Source: Ferruginibacter sp.
Lineage (GTDB): Bacteria > Bacteroidota > Bacteroidia > Chitinophagales > Chitinophagaceae
Reading direction: 5' to 3'
Assembly (NCBI GenBank): GCA_013141115.1
Contig: JABFRP010000002.1
Span: 834,389-898,388, forward strand
Length of the DNA: 64,000 nucleotides
Shown: one piece after another, positions 14,023 to 56,904 of the stretch
How positions within the stretch are numbered: position 1 is the stretch's first letter
Layout of the letters: the number at the start of each line of letters is the position of its first letter
Notes under the pieces: generated by a model
The model's input: only the letters and a program-made list of their open reading frames with translations
The model's database searches: none
Told to the model about the DNA's origin: nothing
Position numbers and translations under genes: made by a program

Positions 14023-14253
14023 TTAATGGTGCTTTTTGGCGTGGAGAATAAACGGGTGTTTACAATTAATAAAATCATTTTTCATTTGCTGTAAACATGC
14101 AGCACAAACACAATCGTTGAAGAGGCTGTTTATATAAGCCCTTTCTTGTGCCGATAATATGATGCCATAGCATTGGCATTGGGCAATATTGCCCACTTTG
14201 CACTCAAAAGATTGGTTGCAGCGTGGGCAATATTTAGCTTCGTGCATACACAT
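14023..14253 (-). CDS. cysteine-rich small protein (CWC-type)
   Basis: 76 aa with CPRC...C.C..C.C...C.C..C spacing. Confidence 0.55.
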   Translation of the reverse strand: MCMHEAKYCPRCNQSFECKVGNIAQCQCYGIILSAQERAYINSLFNDCVCAACLQQMKNDFINCKHPFILHAKKHH

Positions 14254-14266
14254 AAACAGTACTTTA

Positions 14267-16666
14267 TTACGAGCCGCAACTTACACAGCCATCTTCCATG
14301 CTACAGGTTGGTCCATCAATTTGTGTGGGCTCTACATCGCTAACAATTTCTGCGGTGTTATTTACAATTTCGGCATTGGGCATTACGGGTACAATTTCTT
14401 CACTGCCTTGTTTTTCTACTGTAAACTGCACGGCTTGTGTTGCAGCCTGGCTACGTAAATAATACATACCGGTTTTCAATCCCTTCTTCCAGGCGTAAAA
14501 ATGCATGGAGGTTAATTTAGAGGCTGTTGGGCTATCTACAAATAAATTTAATGATTGCGATTGACAGATATAAGCACCTCTATCGGCAGCCATATCAATT
14601 AAACTACGTTGTTTAATTTCCCAAACTGTTTTGTACAATTCTTTTATTGCTGCAGGTATTTCTTCAATTTTTTGTATTGAGCCATTGGCTGCAATAATTT
14701 TATTTTTCATTGAATTATTCCACAAGCCAAGATTTACCAGATCTTTCAGCAAATGTTTATTTACAATAATAAATTCTCCACTTAAAACTCTTCTTGTATA
14801 AATGTTGCTGGTATATGGTTCAAAGCATTCGTTGTTACCAAAAATTTGTGAAGTAGATGCGGTAGGCATCGGTGCCACCAATAAAGAGTTTCTTACACCA
14901 TATTCTTTCACTTCAGCTTTTAATGCAGTCCAATCCCAACGGTCAGTCGGTGTTACGCCCCACATATCAAATTGAAAAATTCCTTTTGATACTGGTGAGC
15001 CTTGATAGGTTTCATAAGTACCCTGCACTTTTGCCAGATCTTTGCTTGCAGTCATAGCTGCAAAGTATATAGTTTCAAAAATATTTTTATTCAGCATTTT
15101 TGCCAACTCACTTTCAAATGGTAAACGTAACATAATGAAAACATCTGCCAGTCCCTGCACACCCAATCCAACGGGGCGATGCTTCATGTTGGAATATTTT
15201 GCCTCGGGCACCGGATAGTAATTATTATCAATTACATCATTTAAGTTTTTGGTTACCTGATACGTTACTTCAAATAATTTTTGATGATCAAATTTGCCAT
15301 CAATTACAAAACGAGGTAAGGCCAATGATGCCAGGTTACAAACTGCCACTTCTTCGGGGCTGGTGTATTCCATAATTTCGGTACAAAGATTACTGCTTTT
15401 GATAGTACCTAAATTTTGCTGATTGCTTTTACCGTTAGCCGCATCTTTATATAATAAATACGGTGTACCGGTTTCTATTTGTGATTCTAAAATTTTAAAC
15501 CAAAGCTCCTGTGCTTTTATAGTTTTTCTTGCTTTGCCTGCAGCTTCGTAACTGGTATATAGTTTTTCAAATTCAGCACCCCAACATTCGCTTAAGCCCG
15601 GCGCTTCATTAGGGCAAAATAAACTCCACTCTTCATTTGCCTCTACTCTTTTCATAAATAGATCACTCATCCATAAAGCAAAGAATAAATCCCTTGCTCT
15701 CATTTCTTCTTTACCATGATTTTTACGTAGGTCTAAAAATTCAAACACATCAGCATGCCATGGTTCTAAATAAATTGCAAAAGCACCTTTGCGTTTGCCG
15801 CCACCCTGATCTACATATCTTGCTGTATCATTAAATACTCTAAGCATTGGTATAATACCATTGCTGGTACCGTTAGTGCCACCAATATAACTGCCTGTTG
15901 CCCTTACATTATGTATTGCCAAACCAATACCTCCTGCACTTTGAGAGATTTTTGCTGTTTGTTTAAGCGTATCATAAATACCATCAATGCTGTCGTCTTT
16001 CATGGTCAACAAAAAACATGAACTCATTTGTGGTTTTGGTGTACCAGCATTAAATAAAGTTGGTGTGGCATGTGTCATCCAGCGTTCGCTCATTAAGTGG
16101 TAAGTTTTTACCACGCTCTCCATATCATTTTTATGAATACCCACGGCCACCCTCATGTACATATGTTGCGGACGTTCTACAATTTTATTATCGATCTTTA
16201 AAAGATAAGATTTTTCCAAAGTTTTAAAACCAAAATAGTCAAACGCAAAATCACGATCATAAATAATAGTACTGTCTAAAAGGTCGGCATTGGCTTCAAT
16301 AATTTCCATTACATCATCTGCAATCAATGGCAAAGCTTTACCCGATCTTATATCAACGTAATCATACAATTTCCTCATCGTAACCGAAAAACTCTTCACT
16401 GTATTTTTATGCAAATTACTTACTGCTATACGTGATGCTAATATTGCATAATCGGGATGTGTAATGGTTAATGATGCTGCCGTTTCTGCAGCCAGGTTAT
16501 CCAGTTCGGTAGTTGGTACACCTTCATAAATACCGCCGATAGTTTTTTTAGCTACATCAATTGCATTTACCATGGGACTAAGGCCGTATGATAATTTCTC
16601 TATTCTTGCGGTTACTTTATCAAATTTTACGGATTCTGTTTTACCGTTTCTCTTAATTACATGCAT
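14267..16666 (-). CDS. nrdA: ribonucleoside-diphosphate reductase alpha subunit (class Ia)
   Basis: 799 aa with an N-terminal ATP-cone ([16 protein letters not shown]), the active-site region NLCTEI, and a C-terminal Cys pair. Confidence 0.95.
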
Positions 16667-17765: not shown

Positions 17766-17879
17766 AATAAACTATAAAAATATTTGCCTGTAAGAAAAAG
17801 TATAGTGCTGAAAAGGTGAGCCGGCAATTTTGCGGCGAAACCATCAGTACCATTACTTTTCTCCCGAAAGCGTTGTTAC

Positions 17880-18030
17880 TAAAATTGATTGTTGGCAGGT
17901 CTTCTGACTTACTCCGTTGTTTAATGCCTTCCCGTCAAATACAACAGTGGCTTGAAGTTTAAACAATTTAAAGGAGCTTACAGCTACGGGGATAGTTTCC
18001 GTTTTTCACGGGATTCCCTTTTAATTCCAT
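17880..18030 (-). promoter_or_regulatory. cobalamin riboswitch in the nrdBA leader
   Basis: The minus strand reads AAAAGGGAATCCCGTGAAAAACGGAAACTATCCCCGTAGCTGTAAGC...GCCACTG...GGGAAGGC...AGTAAGTCAGAAGACCTGCCAAC (B12 box). Confidence 0.85.
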
Positions 18031-18325
18031 TTCAATTGTTGCTAAAACGAAAACCAAAATCTGGTTGCAAAATAAAGGAGAAAATTATGTTTGTATTAAT
18101 TTGTTATGCACCAAATGTGAGAAACCTTTTACAGAAATTAAGAAAGATTTTTTAAGGGCTGAAAATGTGAGTGAATCACCCCAAAAGGGTGGCTCACTTA
18201 ACTCACAAAGGATTTAAAAATAAGGTAAGCCGTTCTTTTGGGTGCCCTTTTATCAAAAAGGAGTGAGCCTCCCTTTTAAGGTGACCCACTCCAGCTAAAA
18301 CATATTCTTTAATAAAATTATTTAA

Positions 18326-20263: not shown

Positions 20264-20394
20264 TTTTTTGAAAAATTTTTTTTGTTGTGACTGCTTCCGT
20301 GGAAAATTTGTGGTTGGTGCTTACACCAAACACGGCGAAATATAAATGCCTTACAGCTTTTACACTCCATGCCTTTCACCCGAAAGCTTTGAAT

Positions 20395-20550
20395 GATTGT
20401 TAATTGATGTGGCAGGTCTTCTGGCTTACTCCCTGTTTGTTGCCTTCCCGTCAATTTAAAAACAGTGGCTTGAAGAACAAACAGTTTACAGAGTTTACAG
20501 CTACGGGGATAGCTCCCGATTTTAACGGGATTCCCTTTTAATACCGATTT
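20395..20550 (-). promoter_or_regulatory. cobalamin riboswitch in the TonB-receptor leader
   Basis: The minus strand reads AAAAGGGAATCCCGTTAAAATCGGGAGCTATCCCCGTAGCTGTAAAC...GCCACTG...GGGAAGGC...AGTAAGCCAGAAGACCTGCCAC (B12 box). It is a near paralog of the element at 17880. Confidence 0.85.
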
Positions 20551-20681
20551 GACATCGGCAACCAAATCTGCTGCAAATATAGGGGGTTTGATTTTTATTG
20601 TTTCAATAATTATCTACGTAATGTAGAGAAATAAAAAAGCCAATCAAAAATGATTGGCTTTAAAATAAATTACCTGTTTTG

Positions 20682-40811: not shown

Positions 40812-42179
40812 ATGAAAAAAATAATACTCCTCCCTGTTATGTCCATGTATGCACTAACTGCTTTTTGCCAACAAGATTCCTTATTAAAAAACTTTAAATT
40901 CCGTAACAGTAATTACAAGGCTATTAATTTAAATATTGGGGGCAACGGTCAATTTAATAAAACAGATTTTATTGCCGGAACCACCAAAAATTCCGGCGGT
41001 GGCGGAAGTGTTGGTGTAAACTATTACACGGCCCAAAGCACCGATAAAATACTTTTAACAGCATCCGCAGGTATTGGATCTTACTTCAATTTTGCCAAAT
41101 CAAACAATACCGGTGGGGTTAGCAGAACAAATGCCTTTTCAGTTAATCCAAACTTTAATGTATTGAATAAATGGTTTTCCAACAGTAAATTTATTGAGCT
41201 CGGTGCAGATGGCACTGCCTCTGTTTTCACAGGTAAAGACAAGAGCAATATACCCGGCACTACTTCAAAACAAAGCCAGCTTAATTATGATTTTGCCGTT
41301 AATGCAGGCATTGGAACAGGCAGACTGGAAAATATCACCGACATGCAGAATGCACTCTGGTTATCTAAAGCATTGCAAGCATCTAACAGTTTGTTACACC
41401 CATTATCCGCATCAGAATTGAATGAATTGGGCCGCACTATTACGGCAGCTAATAATACCCGTGTGCTGGATGGCAGAAAAAGAACACAATTTGTTTTGAC
41501 AACCATTGATAATTTTTTTCAGCAAAAAGGATTGATACCAAAAACCGACATTAATTATTTCAGCAACCTGAATGATATTGTATTCTTTGCTTTTAATACT
41601 CCCCGGTTATCCGGAACAGAAAAATTCATTCGATTTACACCGGCAATAACTGATTACAAAAACGATAATATGCAAAACAACAACGCCAGTAAATATGAGG
41701 GAAAAGCAAATACCAAATCTCTTGTACTGTCAACAGGTTTTAATAAATACACAGCCAGCAGTCTTATTCATCAAAATAATTATGGTGTTTCGTTAAACTT
41801 CTCTTATAATGATGTTGATTTTTCGGACAGGTATTTTATATCCGGCACAGTAACAAGTGAAGTAAAAGGAATGCTTAAAGTAAAACAAGCCAGTGTGAAT
41901 TTATTTTTTGAACATGCCATTTACCCAAATACGAGAACGATCATAAATTTTAACCTGCAACCACAATTGGGATACCAGGATGTGAATAAGCAAACCAGCC
42001 TTTTTGGCCAGGTGGATCTTACTGGTTCACTTAACTATTTTATCAGTTACCGAACAAGGTTTGTATGTAATCTTTATGGAATTTACCGTAATAATGTACA
42101 GCAAATTCAACGCCCCGTTGAATTGCTTCCCAATGCCATTCAATTAAATGCGGGTGCAGGATTAATTGTGAGTATATAA
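40812..42179 (+). CDS. secreted, probably outer-membrane beta-rich protein, unknown function
   Basis: 455 aa with a signal peptide, N/S/T-rich with alternating beta-strand-like composition. Confidence 0.55.
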   Translation: MKKIILLPVMSMYALTAFCQQDSLLKNFKFRNSNYKAINLNIGGNGQFNKTDFIAGTTKNSGGGGSVGVNYYTAQSTDKILLTASAGIGSYFNFAKSNNTGGVSRTNAFSVNPNFNVLNKWFSNSKFIELGADGTASVFTGKDKSNIPGTTSKQSQLNYDFAVNAGIGTGRLENITDMQNALWLSKALQASNSLLHPLSASELNELGRTITAANNTRVLDGRKRTQFVLTTIDNFFQQKGLIPKTDINYFSNLNDIVFFAFNTPRLSGTEKFIRFTPAITDYKNDNMQNNNASKYEGKANTKSLVLSTGFNKYTASSLIHQNNYGVSLNFSYNDVDFSDRYFISGTVTSEVKGMLKVKQASVNLFFEHAIYPNTRTIINFNLQPQLGYQDVNKQTSLFGQVDLTGSLNYFISYRTRFVCNLYGIYRNNVQQIQRPVELLPNAIQLNAGAGLIVSI

Positions 42180-48192: not shown

Positions 48193-49042
48193 CTATAAAT
48201 CGCTGAACATATCTTTCAAATATTCAAAGGGTTTCATTTTACTTTTTTTAATTGAATCTAATCCTTTAGTTATTGCTTCGTAAAAATTATTTGTTTGAAA
48301 ATCAATTTTAAGTTGCTCAATCTGCTTCTGCGATTCTTCTTCTTTTTTAGATAACTCTCGTAAAAAAAATATGCCTGCATTTCTAACTTTTTCAAGTCTG
48401 ATAACAACTTCCCGAAATTCTTTCTCTGAAATTTGAATTGGGTTTTTTAATTCATCATTATAATCGCAATAAAAGCCTCTTTGTCTGAATAAATCTACCT
48501 TAGAAAACCAATTTAATTCTCTTCTAAGAATTATTATCTTTCTTAAAAAAGTAAAATTTATACTTGTCCAAAATAAAATTTTTATCATCTCTCATTCCCT
48601 TAATTAGGTTATTCACATGTTCGGGATTATCATTCATTTTTTTAATTATTTTCTTTAATTCATCGCCTGCCAAAGAAATTATAAATATGAAATACGCAAT
48701 TACATACCTTATCTCATGATTCCTGAAGAAAGAGTCAATCCCTTTCGATTTTCTAAAATCAAATCCATTGCCATCTAAAAAAACTATAATTGCTTTTATA
48801 AGTTCTTCAATACTTATGATTGAAGCTGAAATACCCAAGCCAAAATCTCCGTTTTTGGCAAGAACCATTCCTGACTCCCAGCGTCTATCGGAGTTTTCTA
48901 AAATATCATTGTAAACAATTAAGCATTCTTTTCTTGAAATGTTTAAAAATGTTTTACCCTCCATACTTGTTGCTTTAAATTTGTCTAATAAAATTAATTT
49001 AATCACCTGATTCCCCTTTATTAAATATCTATCTATATGCAA
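48193..49042 (-). pseudogene. AbiV/HEPN-like gene apparently split by a frameshift (ORFs 48524..49042 and 48193..48588)
   Basis: The two ORFs overlap by 65 nt. The junction contains the homopolymers TTTTTT and AAAAA. The upstream part has a GLGISASIISIEELIKA helix and the downstream part has SKVDLFRQRGFYCDY, resembling AbiV-type proteins as I recall them. Confidence 0.4.
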
Positions 49043-49245: not shown

Positions 49246-50349
49246 CTATTTCTGCACCACAAATATCTGTTTCAACTGTTCTATCAATGAACCATTACCA
49301 CTTACGCTGATCTCACCAATTTTGTCGGCAATTTTTTCAACGTATTCCATCTCTTTCAATTTCCACAACATGGTATTGTCTTCCATTAATTTGGCAGTGT
49401 TTAACAAACTACGGGTGCTGGCGGTTTCTTCACGCCGCATGATGCTGTTGGCCTGTGCATTTTTTTCTGCCACCAACACTTTGTTCATGATGTCTTTTAC
49501 ATCGCCTGGCAAAATGATATCCCGGATACCGAAACCATTTACTGCAACACCTAAATCTTCGGCAGTATTTTTTATTGCTTCCAAAATAAATGGCACAATG
49601 GTATCTTTTTTCTCCAGCAATTCGTCAAAGCCCAAACCACCAATGTACTCCCGCAATGCCAACTGAAAAGCCACATACAACTGCCGTTCGTAATCTTTGT
49701 TTTGCAACAACGCTTTTTCAATATCGGCCACTTTGTACTGGGCATAACCGTTGATACGCAATGCAGCTTTGTCTTTGGTCAAAATTTCCTGACCGTTGAT
49801 TTCTATTTGCTGCATACGGGTATCGGCTTTACCCACTACAATGGTGATGCTGTTTTTCCACCAGTAGTAAATACCGGCTGGCAATATTTGTGCATACTTT
49901 CCATCAATGAACAAGATGGCTTGCTCATAGTTTTCTACAGTGTAGCTACGCACATAAGGCGCTACCAATTTGTTTTGCAATACGGCACGGCTGATGTTTT
50001 CAGTAATGTCTATTTTGCTGATATCTGCTTTAATAAATTCGTAGTTGTTGACTACGTTTTTCCAAAAAGCATAACGGCCTGCAGTTAATACCTGCTTTAA
50101 CAAACCATCCTGGTACTGCAACACTATTTCATTATCACTTACTTCAATTACCTGCAAGGCGTTGGCTAATGCAGTATCCTGCAATAAAATGTTTAATTCT
50201 GTAGCGGCATAAAATGGTTTGGTTACATCATGTATCATCACGGTTTCATTAAACCACAACCAATAGTTCCCTTCAGTCAACATTTTTTTGTACTCGCCAT
50301 TTTTAAATACCAATGCTATTTGGTAGGCGTTGATTTTTACTTGTTTCAT
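49246..50349 (-). CDS. SPFH/Band-7 (slipin family) protein without a TM anchor
   Basis: 367 aa with a C-terminal SPFH core (GIRDIILPGDVKDIMNKVLVAEKNAQAN). The N-terminus has three repeats of G.Y...L..G.Y..W.N. Confidence 0.85.
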   Translation of the reverse strand: MKQVKINAYQIALVFKNGEYKKMLTEGNYWLWFNETVMIHDVTKPFYAATELNILLQDTALANALQVIEVSDNEIVLQYQDGLLKQVLTAGRYAFWKNVVNNYEFIKADISKIDITENISRAVLQNKLVAPYVRSYTVENYEQAILFIDGKYAQILPAGIYYWWKNSITIVVGKADTRMQQIEINGQEILTKDKAALRINGYAQYKVADIEKALLQNKDYERQLYVAFQLALREYIGGLGFDELLEKKDTIVPFILEAIKNTAEDLGVAVNGFGIRDIILPGDVKDIMNKVLVAEKNAQANSIMRREETASTRSLLNTAKLMEDNTMLWKLKEMEYVEKIADKIGEISVSGNGSLIEQLKQIFVVQK

Positions 50350-50648
50350 TTTGTTTGTTATTATGCCCGCTGATTTCGCAGATGGCGCTGATTAAATTTT
50401 GTTTTAAATAAAGTTGAAATTGGTTGCCATTCTGTAATCACGGAAATGCTTGGTTAACAGATTCTGGCTGACAGTTGTTTTACTATTATTTACCAAAATA
50501 ATTTTAGTAACGTTTAAATAAACCAAGTGTCATTTGTTACCTGCTAATTTTGTCATTTGCAAAGCGTTTACTGAATTTGCTTTGCTGTAAAAGTTGCAAC
50601 AACTTTACAAACAGCGGGCAACGCAATTTCAACTTTAATGGATCACCA

Positions 50649-50720
50649 TTTTTTAAGAAGCGGTGTACTTCTTTACGCTACATTAACGGTGTAGTGCTCT
50701 ACCAATTGAGCTATCCGAGC
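50649..50720 (-). ncRNA. tRNA-like element A (Asn-GTT-like 5' two-thirds, aberrant 3' part)
   Basis: The minus strand reads GCTCGGA-TA-GCTCAATTGGTAGAGC-A-CTACA-CCGTTAA-TGTAG, then AGAAG-TACACCG-CTTCT. No 3' strand complementary to GCTCGGA is present. Confidence 0.5.
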
Positions 50721-50786
50721 TGGATTTCGGAAAGGGATTCGAACCCTAACAATTGTTGTTGCTCTAACCAACTGAGCTATCCTGTT
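50721..50786 (-). ncRNA. tRNA-like element B (D arm, T arm and encoded T-CCA tail, mini anticodon arm)
   Basis: The minus strand reads AACAGGA-TA-GCTCAGTTGGTTAGAGC-(AACAA-CAA-TTGTT)-AGGG-TTCGAAT-CCCT-TCCGAAA-T-CCA. The 5' and 3' acceptor strands pair at only 3 of 7 positions. Confidence 0.5.
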
Positions 50787-50787
50787 T

Positions 50788-50812
50788 TACCAGGAGAAGG
50801 ACTTGAACCTTC
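50788..50812 (-). ncRNA. tRNA-like element C (isolated T arm plus 3' acceptor strand)
   Basis: GAAGG-TTCAAGT-CCTTC-TCCTGGT-A on the minus strand. I could not fold a D or anticodon arm upstream of it. Confidence 0.35.
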
Positions 50813-51005
50813 GACACACAACGTGATGGCTGGCGTACCTTACAGCAACAATAGCATACAGATAGTTACTACGTCTGCACTGTTGTGTTTTAAAACACTA
50901 ACCTGGTTTGCTTTCTGAAGGTGTATACCAGTCTTGCTGTTAAGCAAGCTTTTGAATTGAATTTTTACTTCAACAATATTTTAAAGAACTTCTTGTTTTA
51001 CTTTG

Positions 51006-51061
51006 ATAACACAAATCTCCAACCTATGTGTGCAATTTATTTGCACAGTAAAAATTATTTT
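51006..51061. promoter_or_regulatory. 56-bp duplicated promoter/operator-like element, copy 1
   Basis: 50 of 56 nt are identical to 52012..52067. It contains the palindrome tgtgcaa-N5-ttgcaca (51029-51047). Confidence 0.55.
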
Positions 51062-51072
51062 TTATTTTTTTG

Positions 51073-51266
51073 CCACTCTTGTGCGATTCGAACGCACACT
51101 TTGCTTTCGCAACAGGCCGGCTGTAAATACGCTTCCCTACTAATTGGTAAACTTTCGGTGCACTGTAAACTGTATTCATTCAAACGAGCAGTCTGAACGC
51201 CATCTTCCGGTCACTCCACGGATACGCTTAATTTTTCCGCAGCACTTCCTTTTATGCTAAAGAGTG
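51073..51266 (-). ncRNA. 194-nt tRNA-like RNA (acceptor, D arm and T arm with a ~143-nt central region)
   Basis: The 5' end reads CACTCTT-TA-GCAT-AAAAGGAA-GTGC (51241-51266). The 3' end reads GTGCG-TTCGAAT-CGCAC-AAGAGTG-G (51073-51097). The 7-nt acceptor strands are perfectly complementary. Confidence 0.4.
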
Positions 51267-51272
51267 AAATAA

Positions 51273-52013
51273 TTATTTCCCCGGGCAATTCAATGTTTCA
51301 TAAACCTCATTTATTTCTGTTACAAATGCCCCGGTATAACTTTGTATTACCAATAAATCCTCTATGCTTGATTTAAATTTTAAAATGGTCGTTTTATCAT
51401 TTAGCCACTCATTTAAAAATTCTATACCACCATCAGCAAAAGGATTATCAATACTCAAATTCCCTTTCCTTGTCACCTTAACTCCAGACGCTATCGTTTG
51501 AACAAAATGCATTAAAGCACTGAATTCTTTTACTTCTTCCCACATTTCAGTTGTCCAGCTAATATCAAAGCCTGTTTTTGAAAGCATAATAATTACAGCT
51601 TCAAGGTCTTCAAAATCAGCAGCAGGATATTTTGTCAAGCATTTTTTAAAGAATGATTTCATATACTGCTCCAGAAAATCCGTTTCGTCTGTTGACCATT
51701 CTCCCGATCTTAAATATGCCATTCTGCTTAAAGCTATTTCTACAGAATGTGCTGGAAAATTGAATTCACTGATAAGTTCCAATAAACGTGGCAGAAAATA
51801 TTTGTACTCCACCGCTTCAATTTCTTCCGACATAGCTGAAGTATTATAGACACTCAGCAAGTCTAAAGGAATTTTTTCAACCGGTATACTCAATAGCAAT
51901 TCCTGTTCTTCTTCACTCACACAACATGGGCATACATCAAGTTTACCATTAAGTTTGTAGCGGGCAAACAGGTTGTAACCTTTTTGTATGATCTCCTTCA
52001 TTTCCTTTTCCAT
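51273..52013 (-). CDS. hypothetical protein (246 aa from M33)
   Basis: ORF 51273..52109. The ATG at 52013 is preferred because upstream of it lies the shared divergent promoter element. No family recognised. Confidence 0.55.
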   Translation of the reverse strand: MEKEMKEIIQKGYNLFARYKLNGKLDVCPCCVSEEEQELLLSIPVEKIPLDLLSVYNTSAMSEEIEAVEYKYFLPRLLELISEFNFPAHSVEIALSRMAYLRSGEWSTDETDFLEQYMKSFFKKCLTKYPAADFEDLEAVIIMLSKTGFDISWTTEMWEEVKEFSALMHFVQTIASGVKVTRKGNLSIDNPFADGGIEFLNEWLNDKTTILKFKSSIEDLLVIQSYTGAFVTEINEVYETLNCPGK

Positions 52014-52067
52014 AACACAAATCCCAATCCCTTGTGTGCAATCTATTTGCACAGTAAAAATTATTTT
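52012..52067. promoter_or_regulatory. 56-bp duplicated promoter/operator-like element, copy 2 (divergent region of the WYL gene)
   Basis: Palindrome tgtgcaa-N5-ttgcaca at 52035-52053. On the plus strand, TTTG inside the palindrome followed after 21 nt by TATTTTTA resembles a Bacteroidota -33/-7 promoter ahead of the ATG at 52093. Confidence 0.55.
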
Positions 52068-56674: not shown

Positions 56675-56748
56675 TAGTTCCGGTGAGACTCGAACTCACA
56701 ACCACCGAATTAAAAGTTCGGTGCATCTAACCATTGAGCTACGAAACT
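56675..56748 (-). tRNA. tRNA-Lys(TTT)
   Basis: Acceptor AGTTTCG/CGGAACT, T arm GTGAG-TTCGAGT-CTCAC, anticodon arm CCGAA-CTTTTAA-TTCGG. The D stem is weakened by an extra T. Confidence 0.75.
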
Positions 56749-56755
56749 ATTTTTG

Positions 56756-56828
56756 TGATGACTAAAGGACTCGAACCTTTAACCACTACCGTATCAGGAT
56801 AGCACTCTGCCAATTGAGTTAAGTCATC
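56756..56828 (-). tRNA. tRNA-Ile(GAT)
   Basis: Acceptor GATGACT/AGTCATC, T arm AAAGG-TTCGAGT-CCTTT, anticodon arm CTATC-CTGATAC-GGTAG. Confidence 0.8.
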
Positions 56829-56832
56829 TTTG

Positions 56833-56904
56833 TTGCGACCGCAAGATTCGAACTTGCATCTTCTGGCTTATGAGACCAGTATGTTACCATTACACCAAGT
56901 CACA
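56833..56904 (-). tRNA. tRNA-Met(CAT) (elongator Met or lysidine-dependent Ile2, undecided)
   Basis: Acceptor TGTGACT/GGTCGCA (2 G-U pairs), T arm GCAAG-TTCGAAT-CTTGC, anticodon arm CTGGT-CTCATAA-GCCAG. It lacks the initiator GGG/CCC stem. Confidence 0.75.

Follow-up and report, generated by a model that had tools for sequence, protein, structure and literature searches.

Upstream of a slipin gene in a 64,000-nucleotide stretch of Ferruginibacter sp. DNA (the whole of which we call the window) lie several pieces that look like parts of tRNAs, and the locus raises the question of whether these are relics of tRNA genes or belong to an RNA that works with the neighboring protein. A sequence-only reading had divided 164 nt into three units, named C, B and A in the direction of transcription, and had suggested that B in particular might be an RNA cofactor of the slipin protein rather than debris. 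We found that these elements are the core of one conserved structured RNA and not three decayed linear tRNAs. The region is the center of a single highly structured non-coding RNA that precedes a slipin gene with no transmembrane segment, and the feature is far larger than the 164 nt first noticed. From 5' to 3', it has a multi-helix domain, two tRNA-like modules that are circularly permuted, an H-type pseudoknot and a ~230-nt domain at the 3' end (Table 1). As originally stated, the distance from the end of these tRNA-like elements to the ATG of the slipin gene (position 50349), on the same strand, is about 300 nt.

Table 1. Features of the slipin-associated RNA and its surroundings, in window coordinates.
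Feature	Position	Strand	Description
Whole conserved structured RNA	50401..50989	-	~590 nt, 5' motif through U-rich tract downstream of the 3'-domain closing helix; alignments A2 and A3
Conserved 5' motif	50974..50989	-	GUUCUUUAAAAUAUUG; from upstream sequences of 53 loci
Hairpin P0	50957..50973	-	UUGAA...UUCAA; compensatory variants seen by eye, no formal count
5' domain (P1-P5)	50830..50948	-	RNAalifold and pair counts
Hairpin P1	50948-50933	-	5' domain
Helix P2	50931-50925 with 50836-50830	-	5' domain, long-range
Helix P3	50911-50908 with 50851-50848	-	5' domain, long-range
Hairpin P4	50902-50882	-	5' domain
Hairpin P5	50880-50856	-	5' domain
tRNA-like module 1	50756..50821	-	circularly permuted; element C plus 5' half of element B
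Helix P6	50821-50818 with 50759-50756	-	in place of the anticodon stem of module 1; encloses T arm 1, AS1 and D arm 1
T arm 1	50812-50796	-	module 1; GAAGG-UUCAAGU-CCUUC
Closed acceptor-like hairpin AS1	50795-50780	-	module 1
D arm 1	50777-50761	-	module 1; preceded by U8 A9
tRNA-like module 2	50678..50748	-	circularly permuted, broken within the variable region; 3' half of element B with most of element A
T arm 2	50748-50732	-	module 2; (U)AGGG-UUCGAAU-CCCU(U)
Closed acceptor-like hairpin AS2	50731-50714	-	module 2; loop contains the 'CCA' of element B
D arm 2	50711-50696	-	module 2
Anticodon-type arm	50694-50678	-	module 2; CUACA-CCGUUAA-UGUAG, 7-nt loop CCGUUAA
H-type pseudoknot	50644..50672	-	hairpin AGAAG-UACACCG-CUUCU; loop CACCG pairs with UGGUG past an A-rich linker
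3' domain	50401..50643	-	nested long-range helices P7, P8, P9, P10 and P11; alignment A3 and RNAalifold
Helix P7	50635-50623 with 50423-50411	-	closes the 3' domain
U-rich tract	50413-50401	-	CUUUAUUUAAAAC; 3' of the closing helix
Slipin/Band-7 (SPFH) gene	49246..50349	-	367 aa; Pfam Band_7 E=5.8e-27; no transmembrane segment
Palindrome	51028..51048	-	CTGTGCAAATAAATTGCACA; candidate operator/promoter element, upstream of the RNA
Palindrome, second copy	52034-52054		CTGTGCAAATAAATTGCACA; adjoins the WYL-regulator gene

In the slipin protein, an N-terminal region of beta-repeats is accompanied by an SPFH domain and a coiled coil. Among solved structures, its SPFH and coiled-coil part is nearest to stomatin, QmcA and HflK/C, whose structures were solved as large oligomers; the AlphaFold model, built from a 13-sequence alignment, was poor (pLDDT 49.6). 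The surrounding cluster encodes RtcB, two RlaP proteins, an exonuclease, a HEPN protein, a WYL regulator and an array of 15 tRNAs. RtcB lies 5.5 kb downstream of the RNA on the same strand, and the tRNA array lies 5 kb upstream. RtcB repair operons are widespread in bacteria, yet little is understood of the substrates and accessory factors involved. RlaP works on tRNA that has been cleaved (PMC12776372). In Anabaena, deletion of trcR derepresses slipin, an AAA ATPase, rtcB and a tRNA array together, and relief of TrcR repression under translational stress is reported (PMC10272220).

ARAGORN called no tRNA at 50640-50830 and, apart from one odd call, none in the homologous block of 60 loci. The Rfam tRNA model (RF00005) gave element A (50655-50714) 29.6 bits against a gathering threshold of 29, matching model positions 7-64 only, and gave element B 25.8 bits. 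Rfam-based pipelines may label part of this RNA as tRNA. The YrlA model (RF02553) matched 50756-50820 with 37 bits (E=4e-6 in a 1.5-kb scan; model positions 23-86), and in homologues it scored 30-39 bits; in the window as in homologues, its hits fall on module 1 and often on module 2 as well. The YrlA gathering threshold of 69 bits says little here, since even the RNAs beside Ro60 genes in this bacterial family reach only 34-49.5 bits. A scan of 50000-51500 with Rfam 15 at E values up to 10 returned nothing beyond these partial hits of the YrlA and tRNA models. No match came from Pedo-repair or other Rfam motifs, and there was no other gathering-level match in the window to known large non-coding RNAs, tmRNA or T-box leaders. 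A recent origin from the tRNAs of the window's own array was also considered and rejected, as the similarity is limited to generic D-arm resemblance.

We examined 80 related loci, and in 77 of 77 Chitinophagaceae loci with sufficient upstream DNA the RNA immediately precedes the slipin/Band-7 gene; blastn detected the structured block in 73 of the 80. The conserved counterpart that the sequence-only reading had proposed to look for upstream of related slipin genes is present in these 77 loci. The slipin gene is the invariant downstream neighbor across the 80 loci, and the upstream neighbor varies between an AAA ATPase, an RNaseH-like gene, a tRNA and a promoter motif. Covariation was assessed on 53 homologous sequences, all from one bacterial family (Chitinophagaceae), and backs approximately 120 base pairs. 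In alignment A2, 95.3% of cells are paired, compared to 78.6% after shuffling, a control inflated by the relatedness of the 53 sequences, and 36-48% after sliding, a control unaffected by it. Double changes occur in 60 of 78 pairs, RNAalifold counts 56 of 73 pairs as compensatory, and near-invariant non-tRNA sequence flanks the tRNA-like modules. The suggestion that the elements are not debris is upheld by the strong covariation in the 53 homologues and by the invariable linkage to slipin inside an RtcB/RlaP cluster. These sequence comparisons show that the RNA elements are under strong structural selection.

Each of the two modules follows the same YrlA-type order: a T arm, a closed acceptor-like hairpin and a D arm. 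The helices of module 1 (6-9) are 95-100% paired with compensatory changes, those of module 2 (10-14) are 91-100% paired, and P6 joins module 1 to the remainder of the RNA. Tertiary features of tRNA are also present. The Levitt pair 15:48 covaries in module 2 (G:C in 25 sequences, A:U in 23 and exceptions in 5, n=53) and is G:C in 46 sequences in module 1. U8, A14, the D-loop GG (G18 G19) and the T-loop UUCGAAU (UUCRANY) are retained, with A or G at position 9. Closure of the acceptor ends makes aminoacylation impossible for both modules. The anticodon-type loop of module 2 keeps U33, R37 and A38 among homologues; its 'anticodon' is variable, which argues against specific decoding or a role as a decoy for a single toxin. 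A model built from module 1 (R1) scored 85 bits at module 1 of the window and 53-86 bits in nearly all homologous loci.

This register differs from the one read from the window alone. All of the motifs quoted in that reading are present on the minus strand, including the D arm UAGCUCAGUUGGUUAGAGC (50779-50761), the T arm (50748-50732), the AACAA-CAA-UUGUU hairpin and CCA (50723-50721). The division into units A, B and C does not hold, however: the real folding units are shifted in register, and element B is split between them, its 5' half going with C and its 3' half with A. Element C does contain the T arm described for it, but this arm belongs with the 5' half of B in module 1. The D arm and anticodon-type arm of element A are present as described, whereas its supposed non-canonical T arm (GAAG-UACACCG-CUUC) is the pseudoknot hairpin. 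Element B is not, as the earlier reading took it, a tRNA-like gene of its own (~65 nt) with a CCA tail and a miniature anticodon hairpin of 5 bp and 3 nt; we found instead modules permuted like YrlA and embedded in the ~590-nt RNA. The linear acceptor stem pairs at 3 of 7 positions in the window, as stated, but across homologues only 58% of its cells are paired, which is the shuffle level. The miniature hairpin is at the shuffle level too, with 29% of cells paired, and we rejected the linear tRNA reading of element B on these two counts in the 53 homologues. It is correct that none of the window's 17 real tRNA genes encodes CCA, but the CCA of element B occurs in only one of 53 sequences, the window's own, and lies within a hairpin loop. 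We attribute it to chance.

The non-tRNA domains are conserved as well. In most genomes, the AAA-ATPase or RNaseH-like gene upstream has its stop codon immediately before the 5' motif or overlapping with it. P0 varies across loci as GUUGAU/AUCAAC, GCUGC/GCAGC and GCCGGU/AUCGGC. The 5'-domain helices (1-5) are paired in 94-98% of cells with double changes in most pairs, and a nearly invariant stretch, AGUGCAG...GUAAC...CUGUAUGCU.UUG, surrounds P5. Complementarity between the pseudoknot loop and the downstream strand, 4-7 nt at a fixed offset, was found in 52 of 53 sequences, with variants CAGC/GCUG, CGCC/GGCG, CAUC/GAUG and GCUUC/GAAGC. For the 3' domain, RNAalifold on alignment A3 predicted 42 pairs, 39 of them with compensatory changes, and 85.2% of cells are paired, compared to 66.4% after shuffling and 34-49% after sliding.

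The closest known relative of the modules is YrlA, a Y RNA whose tRNA-like domain is permuted in the same way, running from T arm through a closed acceptor-like stem-loop (AS) to D arm (Chen et al. 2014, PMC4201824); pseudouridine-55 and dihydrouridine have been mapped in YrlA. Both modules share this order as well as the conserved tertiary nucleotides, including the 15:48 pair that covaries in module 2, and the locus likewise lies in an RtcB RNA-repair cluster. There are also differences. YrlA is ~110 nt long, whereas this RNA has ~590 nt with additional covarying domains and a pseudoknot, carries two modules in tandem and has a full anticodon-type arm on one of them. The Ro-binding motif GNCGAAN0-1G, which in YrlA lies near the 5' end, was found in only 10 of 53 sequences, where it coincides with the T arm. 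A terminal stem formed from both RNA ends is present in the Ro60-adjacent YrlA-like RNAs of three sister loci (L018, L019 and L037) but absent from the window module. Because the Ro-binding motif and the terminal stem are absent, the analogy with Y RNAs is limited to the tRNA-like domain and the genes around it. A TROVE (Ro60/Rsr) domain, expected for YrlA within about 4 kb on the same strand, was not found in the window by a Pfam scan of 30 ORFs together with most, not all, ORFs of at least 300 aa. Model R1 also finds YrlA-like RNAs beside Ro60/TROVE genes in sister genomes (44-64 bits), and L018 and L019 each have a TROVE gene with its own, separate YrlA-like RNA. YrlA is reported to be occasionally adjacent to Band-7 genes (Wang et al. 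2018, 10.1101/312249). We read the RNA as the Band-7-associated counterpart of a Y RNA, with a function inferred accordingly. The locus shows that the YrlA-type permuted tRNA mimic is not tied to Ro and can sit in a much larger RNA beside another ring-forming protein.

[quoted passage not shown] As that passage describes it, b7a-tRNA resembles the window RNA in being tRNA-like and in its place beside a Band-7/slipin gene in an RtcB locus, and differs from it in that the latter has no supported linear acceptor pairing and consists of permuted units inside a much larger RNA. We found tRNA-like RNAs upstream of slipin-RtcB(-RlaP) in Photobacterium, Burkholderia and Subdoligranulum, the last a Firmicute among these other phyla. 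The Burkholderia and Photobacterium counterparts fold as linear cloverleaves whose acceptor stem has 7 bp; the tRNA model gives them 42-54 bits, and ARAGORN calls them tRNAs, with odd anticodon loops. These proteobacterial cloverleaves upstream of slipin are the predicted b7a-tRNA, insofar as the summary in 10.1101/312249 characterizes it. The rtcR-slipin-nucleotidyltransferase loci of E. coli and Citrobacter showed no convincing tRNA-like RNA (12-14 bits with R1 and nothing with Rfam), which indicates that the protein can exist without one.

Other tRNA mimics with altered topology include tmRNA, with its two-piece permuted forms, plant-virus tRNA-like structures and mascRNA. From general knowledge, these share with the window RNA an L-shape formed by T and D arms within a larger RNA and an adjacent pseudoknot, but the window RNA has no tag reading frame, no end that could be aminoacylated and a different gene context; neither Rfam nor ARAGORN gave a tmRNA match. 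ROOL, GOLLD, OLE and HEARO resemble it in size class (~0.6 kb), in multi-domain covarying structure and in nearness to tRNA genes. None of these is built on tRNA-like modules or linked to slipin/RtcB, however, and Rfam showed no match to them in sequence or structure.

We think it rather probable that this one ~590-nt RNA with two permuted tRNA mimics is a partner of slipin in RtcB/RlaP repair. It would serve the slipin protein as YrlA serves the Ro (Rsr) ring in rsr-yrlA-rtcBA operons. The rigid, L-shaped mimics may present a tRNA-like surface that recruits or positions the RtcB ligase, the RlaP nucleotidyltransferase, the exonuclease or cleaved tRNAs at a stomatin-like ring or cage oligomer of slipin, and the non-tRNA domains might bind protein and shield the RNA ends. 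In most genomes, the RNA would be transcribed within an operon (RNaseH-like gene, AAA ATPase, RNA, slipin); in the window, it is probably made from its own palindrome-bearing promoter, probably under the neighboring WYL regulator. The modules probably descend from a chain of tandem tRNA-like genes in which pairing switched partners, so that the 3' acceptor strand of each unit joined the 5' acceptor strand of the unit after it. The permuted model R1 gives 20-32 bits at junctions between neighboring tRNA genes, which makes a tandem-tRNA origin plausible, and such re-pairing of acceptor strands between neighboring units suggests a simple route between linear tRNA-like genes and permuted mimics. 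A bolder extension is tentative and, in our judgment, has the odds against it: the RNA would represent an undescribed class of large (~0.6 kb), ornate RNAs whose domain-swapped tRNA mimics, derived from tandem tRNA genes, dock on a soluble stomatin-like ring or cage, forming a Ro/Y-RNA-like or vault-like particle that captures damaged tRNAs for RtcB/RlaP, with Band-7 in place of Ro. We know of no validation of the predicted Band-7-associated tRNA-like RNA. This locus supplies a covariation-defined RNA with exact helices, a pseudoknot and tertiary pairs, and the role of tRNA-like RNAs in RNA repair becomes testable in culturable Chitinophagaceae, among them the carriers Niastella caeni, N. soli and Chitinophaga arvensicola.

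The alternative that survives best, unlikely as we hold it to be, treats the ~590-nt structure as a 5' untranslated region through which the slipin mRNA would control downstream expression. P7 and the U tract could act as an attenuator, or the anticodon-type loop could be cut by tRNA-damaging nucleases, thereby coupling damage to expression. A terminator scan called no independent minus-strand terminator between the RNA and the slipin gene, and the RNA could therefore be just a long 5' leader. It always directly precedes slipin in the same orientation, with 40-100 nt or more between its end and the ATG, a U-rich tract follows P7 in most loci, and in most genomes it sits inside the operon with no room for a promoter of its own. 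For a leader, however, the size and ornateness would be extreme, and no Rfam cis-regulatory family matches. The core mimics tRNA in tertiary detail, as trans-acting YrlA does, and shows no T-box-like binding of tRNA. Moreover, equivalent modules occur as free-standing YrlA-like RNAs beside the Ro60 genes of sister genomes, and the complete cloverleaf of the proteobacterial counterpart resembles a separately processed small RNA.

It is still less probable that the modules are processing or stability elements with no part in an RNA-protein complex, cut as punctuation by RNase P, RNase Z or RNase E between the AAA-ATPase and slipin cistrons or protecting mRNA ends. The RNA does lie between cistrons in most loci, tRNA arrays lie upstream in the same direction of transcription, and the YrlA of M. 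smegmatis is reported to be open to RNase P cleavage and CCA addition (PMC4201824). However, a loop closes each acceptor-like stem, and the lack of free 5' or 3' ends makes these hairpins poor substrates for RNase P and RNase Z. Punctuation would also have no need of ~400 further nt of covarying 5' and 3' domains and a pseudoknot, and the tight linkage is to the slipin gene rather than to the upstream cistron. The view that the elements are pseudogenes, debris of the neighboring array with no selected function, could draw on the nearness of the 15 tRNAs, on the plausible tandem-tRNA origin and on the silence of ARAGORN, but is in effect refuted by the comparative data: the block is kept in every related locus with enough flank, compensatory substitutions are pervasive in a register unlike that of a linear tRNA, a tertiary pair (15:48) covaries and the non-tRNA flanks of the modules are near-invariant.

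In pattern scans, a 15-base signature gave chance matches in viral and metagenome contigs, in which only 4 of 129 loci fit an extended motif and none of these four had a T loop; a 20-base signature had no match in viral contigs, which held one distant slipin homologue with too short a flank. Within the window, the palindrome CTGTGCAAATAAATTGCACA has four strand-matches, corresponding to two sites, compared to 0.06 expected by chance, and is a putative operator. In several loci, the motif recurs ahead of the RNA and ahead of other units.

The motifs described in the sequence-only reading are all present on the minus strand: the D arm UAGCUCAGUUGGUUAGAGC, the T arm AGGG-UUCGAAU-CCCU, the hairpin AACAA-CAA-UUGUU and a CCA at 50723-50721, together with a second D arm and, after it, an anticodon-type arm (CUACA-CCGUUAA-UGUAG), the hairpin GAAG-UACACCG-CUUC and an upstream T arm (GAAGG-UUCAAGU-CCUUC). 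As that reading stated, the slipin start codon (50349) lies about 300 nt downstream of the block. It had divided the block (50649-50812) into three tRNA-like elements, A, B and C, with B taken as a linear tRNA ending in an encoded CCA tail. We counted pairs for the linear form of element B, with the 3' strand of one closed acceptor-like hairpin (AS1) and the 5' strand of the next (AS2) as its acceptor stem. The acceptor stem was 58% paired and the mini anticodon hairpin 29%, both indistinguishable from shuffles, and the 5' half of the mini hairpin is the 3' strand of helix P6. The CCA itself is real, and no genuine tRNA gene in the window (17 in all) encodes one, but it sits within the AS2 loop and, among the 53 aligned sequences, is confined to that of the window, so it was rejected as a tail. 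These pair counts and the CCA result therefore show that the A/B/C division misplaces the register of what are two permuted modules and a pseudoknot. The full RNA is about 590 nt long and extends far beyond the flagged region. The observation is thus real but mis-parsed.

ARAGORN called no tRNA in the block, and at Rfam gathering thresholds the only match was a partial tRNA (50655-50714), whose 29.6 bits just exceed the cut-off of 29. When 50000-51500 was scanned sensitively against Rfam, the top match was the Y-RNA-like family YrlA (RF02553; 50756-50820; 37 bits, E = 4e-6, model positions 23-86). Element C and the 5' half of element B thereby fall into a single alignment that runs T arm, closed stem-loop, D arm.

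Close homologues of the slipin protein number in the thousands, chiefly in Ferruginibacter and other Chitinophagaceae. From a scan of one genome per species we obtained 80 slipin loci at 69-91% protein identity, and in 73 of these blastn with the window's upstream region detected a homologous non-coding block, which without exception sits just 5' of the slipin gene. R1, a covariance model built from module 1, detects that module in all loci with enough upstream sequence, mostly at 53-86 bits with two weak cases; its E-values are rough because calibration was shortened. The alignments are drawn from one bacterial family throughout, with many sequences from metagenome-assembled genomes. The sequence-only reading had proposed a functional Band-7-associated tRNA-like RNA rather than debris. 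The conserved counterpart upstream of orthologous slipin genes and the compensatory changes in the 53-sequence alignment bear out the latter point, and we infer that the functional reading is right in spirit; in detail it is wrong on the unit, the CCA and the size.

The core alignment comprises 53 sequences spanning window positions 50962-50628, on which RNAalifold predicted 73 pairs, 56 with compensatory double changes. In the final structure, including the pseudoknot, 95.3% of cells were paired, compared to 78.6% when partners were shuffled (500 shuffles) and 36-48% when partners were slid by 1-3 columns. Both-sided changes were seen in 60 of the 78 pairs of the core structure. The core covariation score was 0.519 versus 0.197 for shuffled and about 0.08 for slid partners, and none of the 500 shuffles reached the observed value. 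The P2-P5 region carries a nearly invariant run, AGUGCAG...GUAAC...CUGUAUGCU.UUG. In 52 of 53 sequences, the loop of the last core hairpin pairs about 7 nt downstream, over an A-rich linker, and this pseudoknot has compensatory variants (CACC/GGUG, CAGC/GCUG, CGCC/GGCG, CAUC/GAUG and GCUUC/GAAGC).

Features of the slipin-associated RNA and its surroundings; genes are in the order read along the minus strand, and positions are those of the window unless a locus is named
Feature	Position	Strand	Remarks
15-tRNA array	57616-55843	-	
tRNA-junction R1 matches	e.g. 56798-56870, 56717-56793		also in many loci
248-aa ORF		-	after tRNA array
RNaseH-like protein (PF04308)		-	after 248-aa ORF; Pfam
AAA ATPase		-	after RNaseH-like gene
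WYL/WCX regulator		opposite	after AAA ATPase
Palindrome copy 2	52034-52054		divergent region, 278-aa ORF / WYL-regulator gene
278-aa ORF		-	between WYL/WCX regulator and RNA region
Palindrome copy 1	51028-51048		upstream of RNA
P1	core RNA	-	hairpin
P2, P3	core RNA	-	long-range helices enclosing hairpins P4, P5
P6	core RNA	-	encloses T arm 1, closed hairpin AS1, D arm 1
T arm 2, closed hairpin AS2, D arm 2, 5-bp arm with 7-nt loop	core RNA	-	after P6
GAAG/CUUC hairpin	core RNA	-	last core helix; loop forms pseudoknot
Slipin/Band-7 gene	50349-49246	-	directly after RNA region
AbiV-type HEPN gene (172 aa) and two small ORFs (131, 208 aa)	48193-49042	-	between slipin and RlaP
Two RlaP nucleotidyltransferases		-	after HEPN gene and small ORFs
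3'-5' exonuclease		-	after RlaP pair
DUF6169 gene		opposite	between exonuclease and RtcB
RtcB	43696-42248	-	
Ro60/TROVE and YrlA-like RNA, sister loci	L018 5333-6844, 7264-7819; L019 607-2136, 2345-2462; L037 7664-7802		

Modules 1 and 2 (50756-50821 and 50678-50748) both retain U8, A14, the D-loop GG and a UUCGAAU-type T loop, with A or G at position 9. In module 2 the Levitt pair, between D-loop position 15 and the residue that immediately precedes T arm 2 and corresponds to position 48, covaries, being G:C in 25 sequences and A:U in 23, with 5 exceptions; in module 1 it is G:C in 46 sequences. The arm 3' of D arm 2 is anticodon-like: its loop spans 7 nt, and positions 33, 37 and 38 hold U, a purine and A, respectively. 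The 'anticodon' itself differs widely between sequences, with GUU (12 sequences) and GAU (8) among many versions, and is therefore not a decoding element. Beyond generic D-arm identity, neither module resembles a particular tRNA of the window array.

Upstream of P1 are a conserved motif, GUUCUUUAAAAUAUUG, and a hairpin, P0, whose covariation was judged by eye. These come immediately after the stop codon of the AAA-ATPase or RNaseH-like gene in most genomes, and therefore the RNA usually lies within an operon. Past the pseudoknot, a 3' domain of about 240 nt (50643-50401) folds into nested long-range helices and is closed by a 13-bp helix (AAGUUGAAAUUGC/CCAAUUUCAACUU) followed by a U-rich tract. 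The alignment of this domain is noisier than that of the core; RNAalifold predicted 42 pairs, 39 with compensatory changes, and 85.2% of cells were paired compared to 66.4% shuffled and 34-49% slid (covariation score 0.592 versus 0.265). No Rfam family covers the RNA, and we found no description of it in the searchable literature. The stretch from the RNA end to the slipin ATG (50352-50400, minus strand) contains short direct repeats, AAUCAGCG..AUCUGCG..AAUCAGCG in the window, and equivalent repeats (two to five copies of AUCCGUG or AAUUCGUG) are found among related loci L004, L005, L012, L014, L017, L021, L029 and L043.

Upstream of the RNA, the window and a minority of loci carry a palindrome, CTGTGCAAATA[A/G]ATTGCACA, together with a stretch containing TTTG; the window has two palindrome copies, versus 0.06 expected by chance. 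We regard it as a candidate operator or promoter, probably controlled by the WYL regulator. The palindrome flanks are conserved, and several copies of the motif are also present in loci L003, L017, L019, L037 and L046.

YrlA RNAs combine a tRNA-like domain ordered T, AS, D with tRNA tertiary contacts, a Ro-binding motif (GNCGAAN0-1G) near the 5' end, and a Ro60 gene within about 4 kb (Chen et al. 2014, PMC4201824). The window RNA has the T-AS-D domain with its tertiary contacts, but it carries no GNCGAAN0-1G motif near the 5' end, and no TROVE/Ro60 domain was found in the 30 window ORFs scanned with Pfam, which included most ORFs of at least 300 aa. Three sister loci (L018, L019 and L037) gave extra R1 matches of 44-64 bits, directly after genes with TROVE and Ro60-vWA domains in L018 and L019. 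Rfam aligned the full YrlA model to these extra RNAs at 34-49.5 bits, and the terminal stem is present in them. Together, these results show that bona fide Ro-associated YrlA-like RNAs exist in Chitinophagaceae, that they also score below the Rfam gathering score of 69, and that the modules next to slipin are closely related to the tRNA-like domain of these RNAs and lie in a different scaffold. Rfam-based annotation would therefore miss YrlA-like RNAs in this phylum. In some sister genomes, the island that holds the slipin RNA also encodes a Ro60/TROVE (Rsr) protein with one or two YrlA-like RNAs.

The RNA-repair setting cited in the sequence-only reading is evident in the island around the slipin gene, with RtcB, two RlaP proteins, an exonuclease and a HEPN gene. 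The slipin-RlaP interval is a variable part of the island and may encode a ribonuclease toxin; the 131-aa and 208-aa ORFs beside the HEPN gene gave no family match. In related locus L081, DinB_2 and another ORF stand where the window has the HEPN gene and small ORFs. Beside RtcB on the opposite strand is a conserved ORF of about 455 aa (40812-42179, plus strand; L081 counterpart 14077-15441) with no Pfam match. The 15 array tRNAs are Trp, Phe, Cys, Ser, Asn, Lys, Ile, Met, Ile-UAU, Arg, His, Gly, Gln, Asp and Glu; all lack an encoded CCA, and their 3' flanks are A-rich. Like arrays lie upstream of the slipin locus in most related genomes (first ~2 kb, most of L001-L066). The window array has an arrangement like that of the Anabaena trn operon, which is stress-induced and regulated together with rtcB and a slipin gene; there, deletion of the repressor gene trcR co-derepresses a slipin gene, an AAA ATPase, rtcB and a tRNA array, and translational stress is reported to relieve TrcR repression (PMC10272220).

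The slipin protein lacks a transmembrane segment. Stomatin, QmcA and HflK/C, solved as oligomers of 16 to 26 chains, are the nearest matches to its SPFH and coiled-coil part, and we infer that the slipin protein too forms a large oligomer. Residues 1-176 look like three tandem beta-hairpin-rich copies (1-41, 65-109 and 133-176), and the SPFH domain starts with the third; the AlphaFold model was too low in confidence for interpretation (pLDDT 49.6). RlaP extends the 5' half of a cleaved tRNA by one or two nucleotides before ligation (PMC12776372), and rsr-yrlBA occupies the equivalent operon position in Salmonella (Wang et al. 2018, 10.1101/312249). In the main rival model, which is less probable, the RNA would be a cis-acting leader or attenuator of the slipin mRNA; a scan for consensus terminators found none on the minus strand between the RNA and the slipin gene. 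In the best-supported model, the RNA would be to the slipin protein what a Y RNA is to Ro. The tRNA mimics would give tRNA-handling enzymes or cleaved tRNAs a rigid, L-shaped surface, and the 5' domain, 3' domain and pseudoknot would bind the slipin ring and protect the RNA.

[quoted passage not shown] 2018 (10.1101/312249), who also report that YrlA occasionally neighbours Band-7. The RNA is a large, permuted, new variant of this predicted, unvalidated tRNA-like class. Among the records of a plasmid collection, we found distant slipin homologues (33-43% identity) in operons of Burkholderia (divergent rtcR, tRNA-like RNA, slipin, RtcB, RlaP), Photobacterium (divergent rtcR, tRNA-like RNA, slipin, RtcB) and Subdoligranulum (tRNA-like RNA, slipin, RtcB, RlaP). 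In Burkholderia the RNA is a linear cloverleaf (7-bp acceptor stem, 6-nt anticodon loop) preceded by an extra T arm, and in Photobacterium two to three units form a chain whose first member has a perfect acceptor stem of 7 bp; the tRNA model scores these RNAs at 42-54 bits. In Subdoligranulum, the RNA combines a closed hairpin and a D-like arm with two T arms. The association between tRNA-like RNA and the slipin family therefore spans phyla, with a linear topology in Proteobacteria in contrast to the permuted one in Chitinophagaceae. No convincing tRNA-like RNA was found at the E. coli (L083) or Citrobacter (L087) slipin loci, where R1 gave 12-14 bits. These loci (L083 6468-8922, E. coli STEC639; L087 2960-6913, Citrobacter freundii) encode slipin and an RlaP-like nucleotidyltransferase without RtcB, and have a 450-530-nt gap before slipin, preceded by rtcR in Citrobacter.

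R1 also scores 20-32 bits on junctions of adjacent array tRNA genes, where the T arm of one meets the D arm of the next, making such junctions a source of false positives for YrlA-type searches. The Photobacterium units abut without a spacer. Based on these two findings, we propose a chain of tandem tRNA-like genes as the origin of the permuted modules: each 3' acceptor strand would have re-paired with the 5' acceptor strand of the next unit. The division into A, B and C probably reflects this ancestry. Unrelated to the RNA, the window contains two cobalamin riboswitches (17877-18073 and 20394-20581, minus strand; 101 and 115 bits), and about 110-130 nt downstream of each is a large ORF on the same strand (323 aa and 645 aa).
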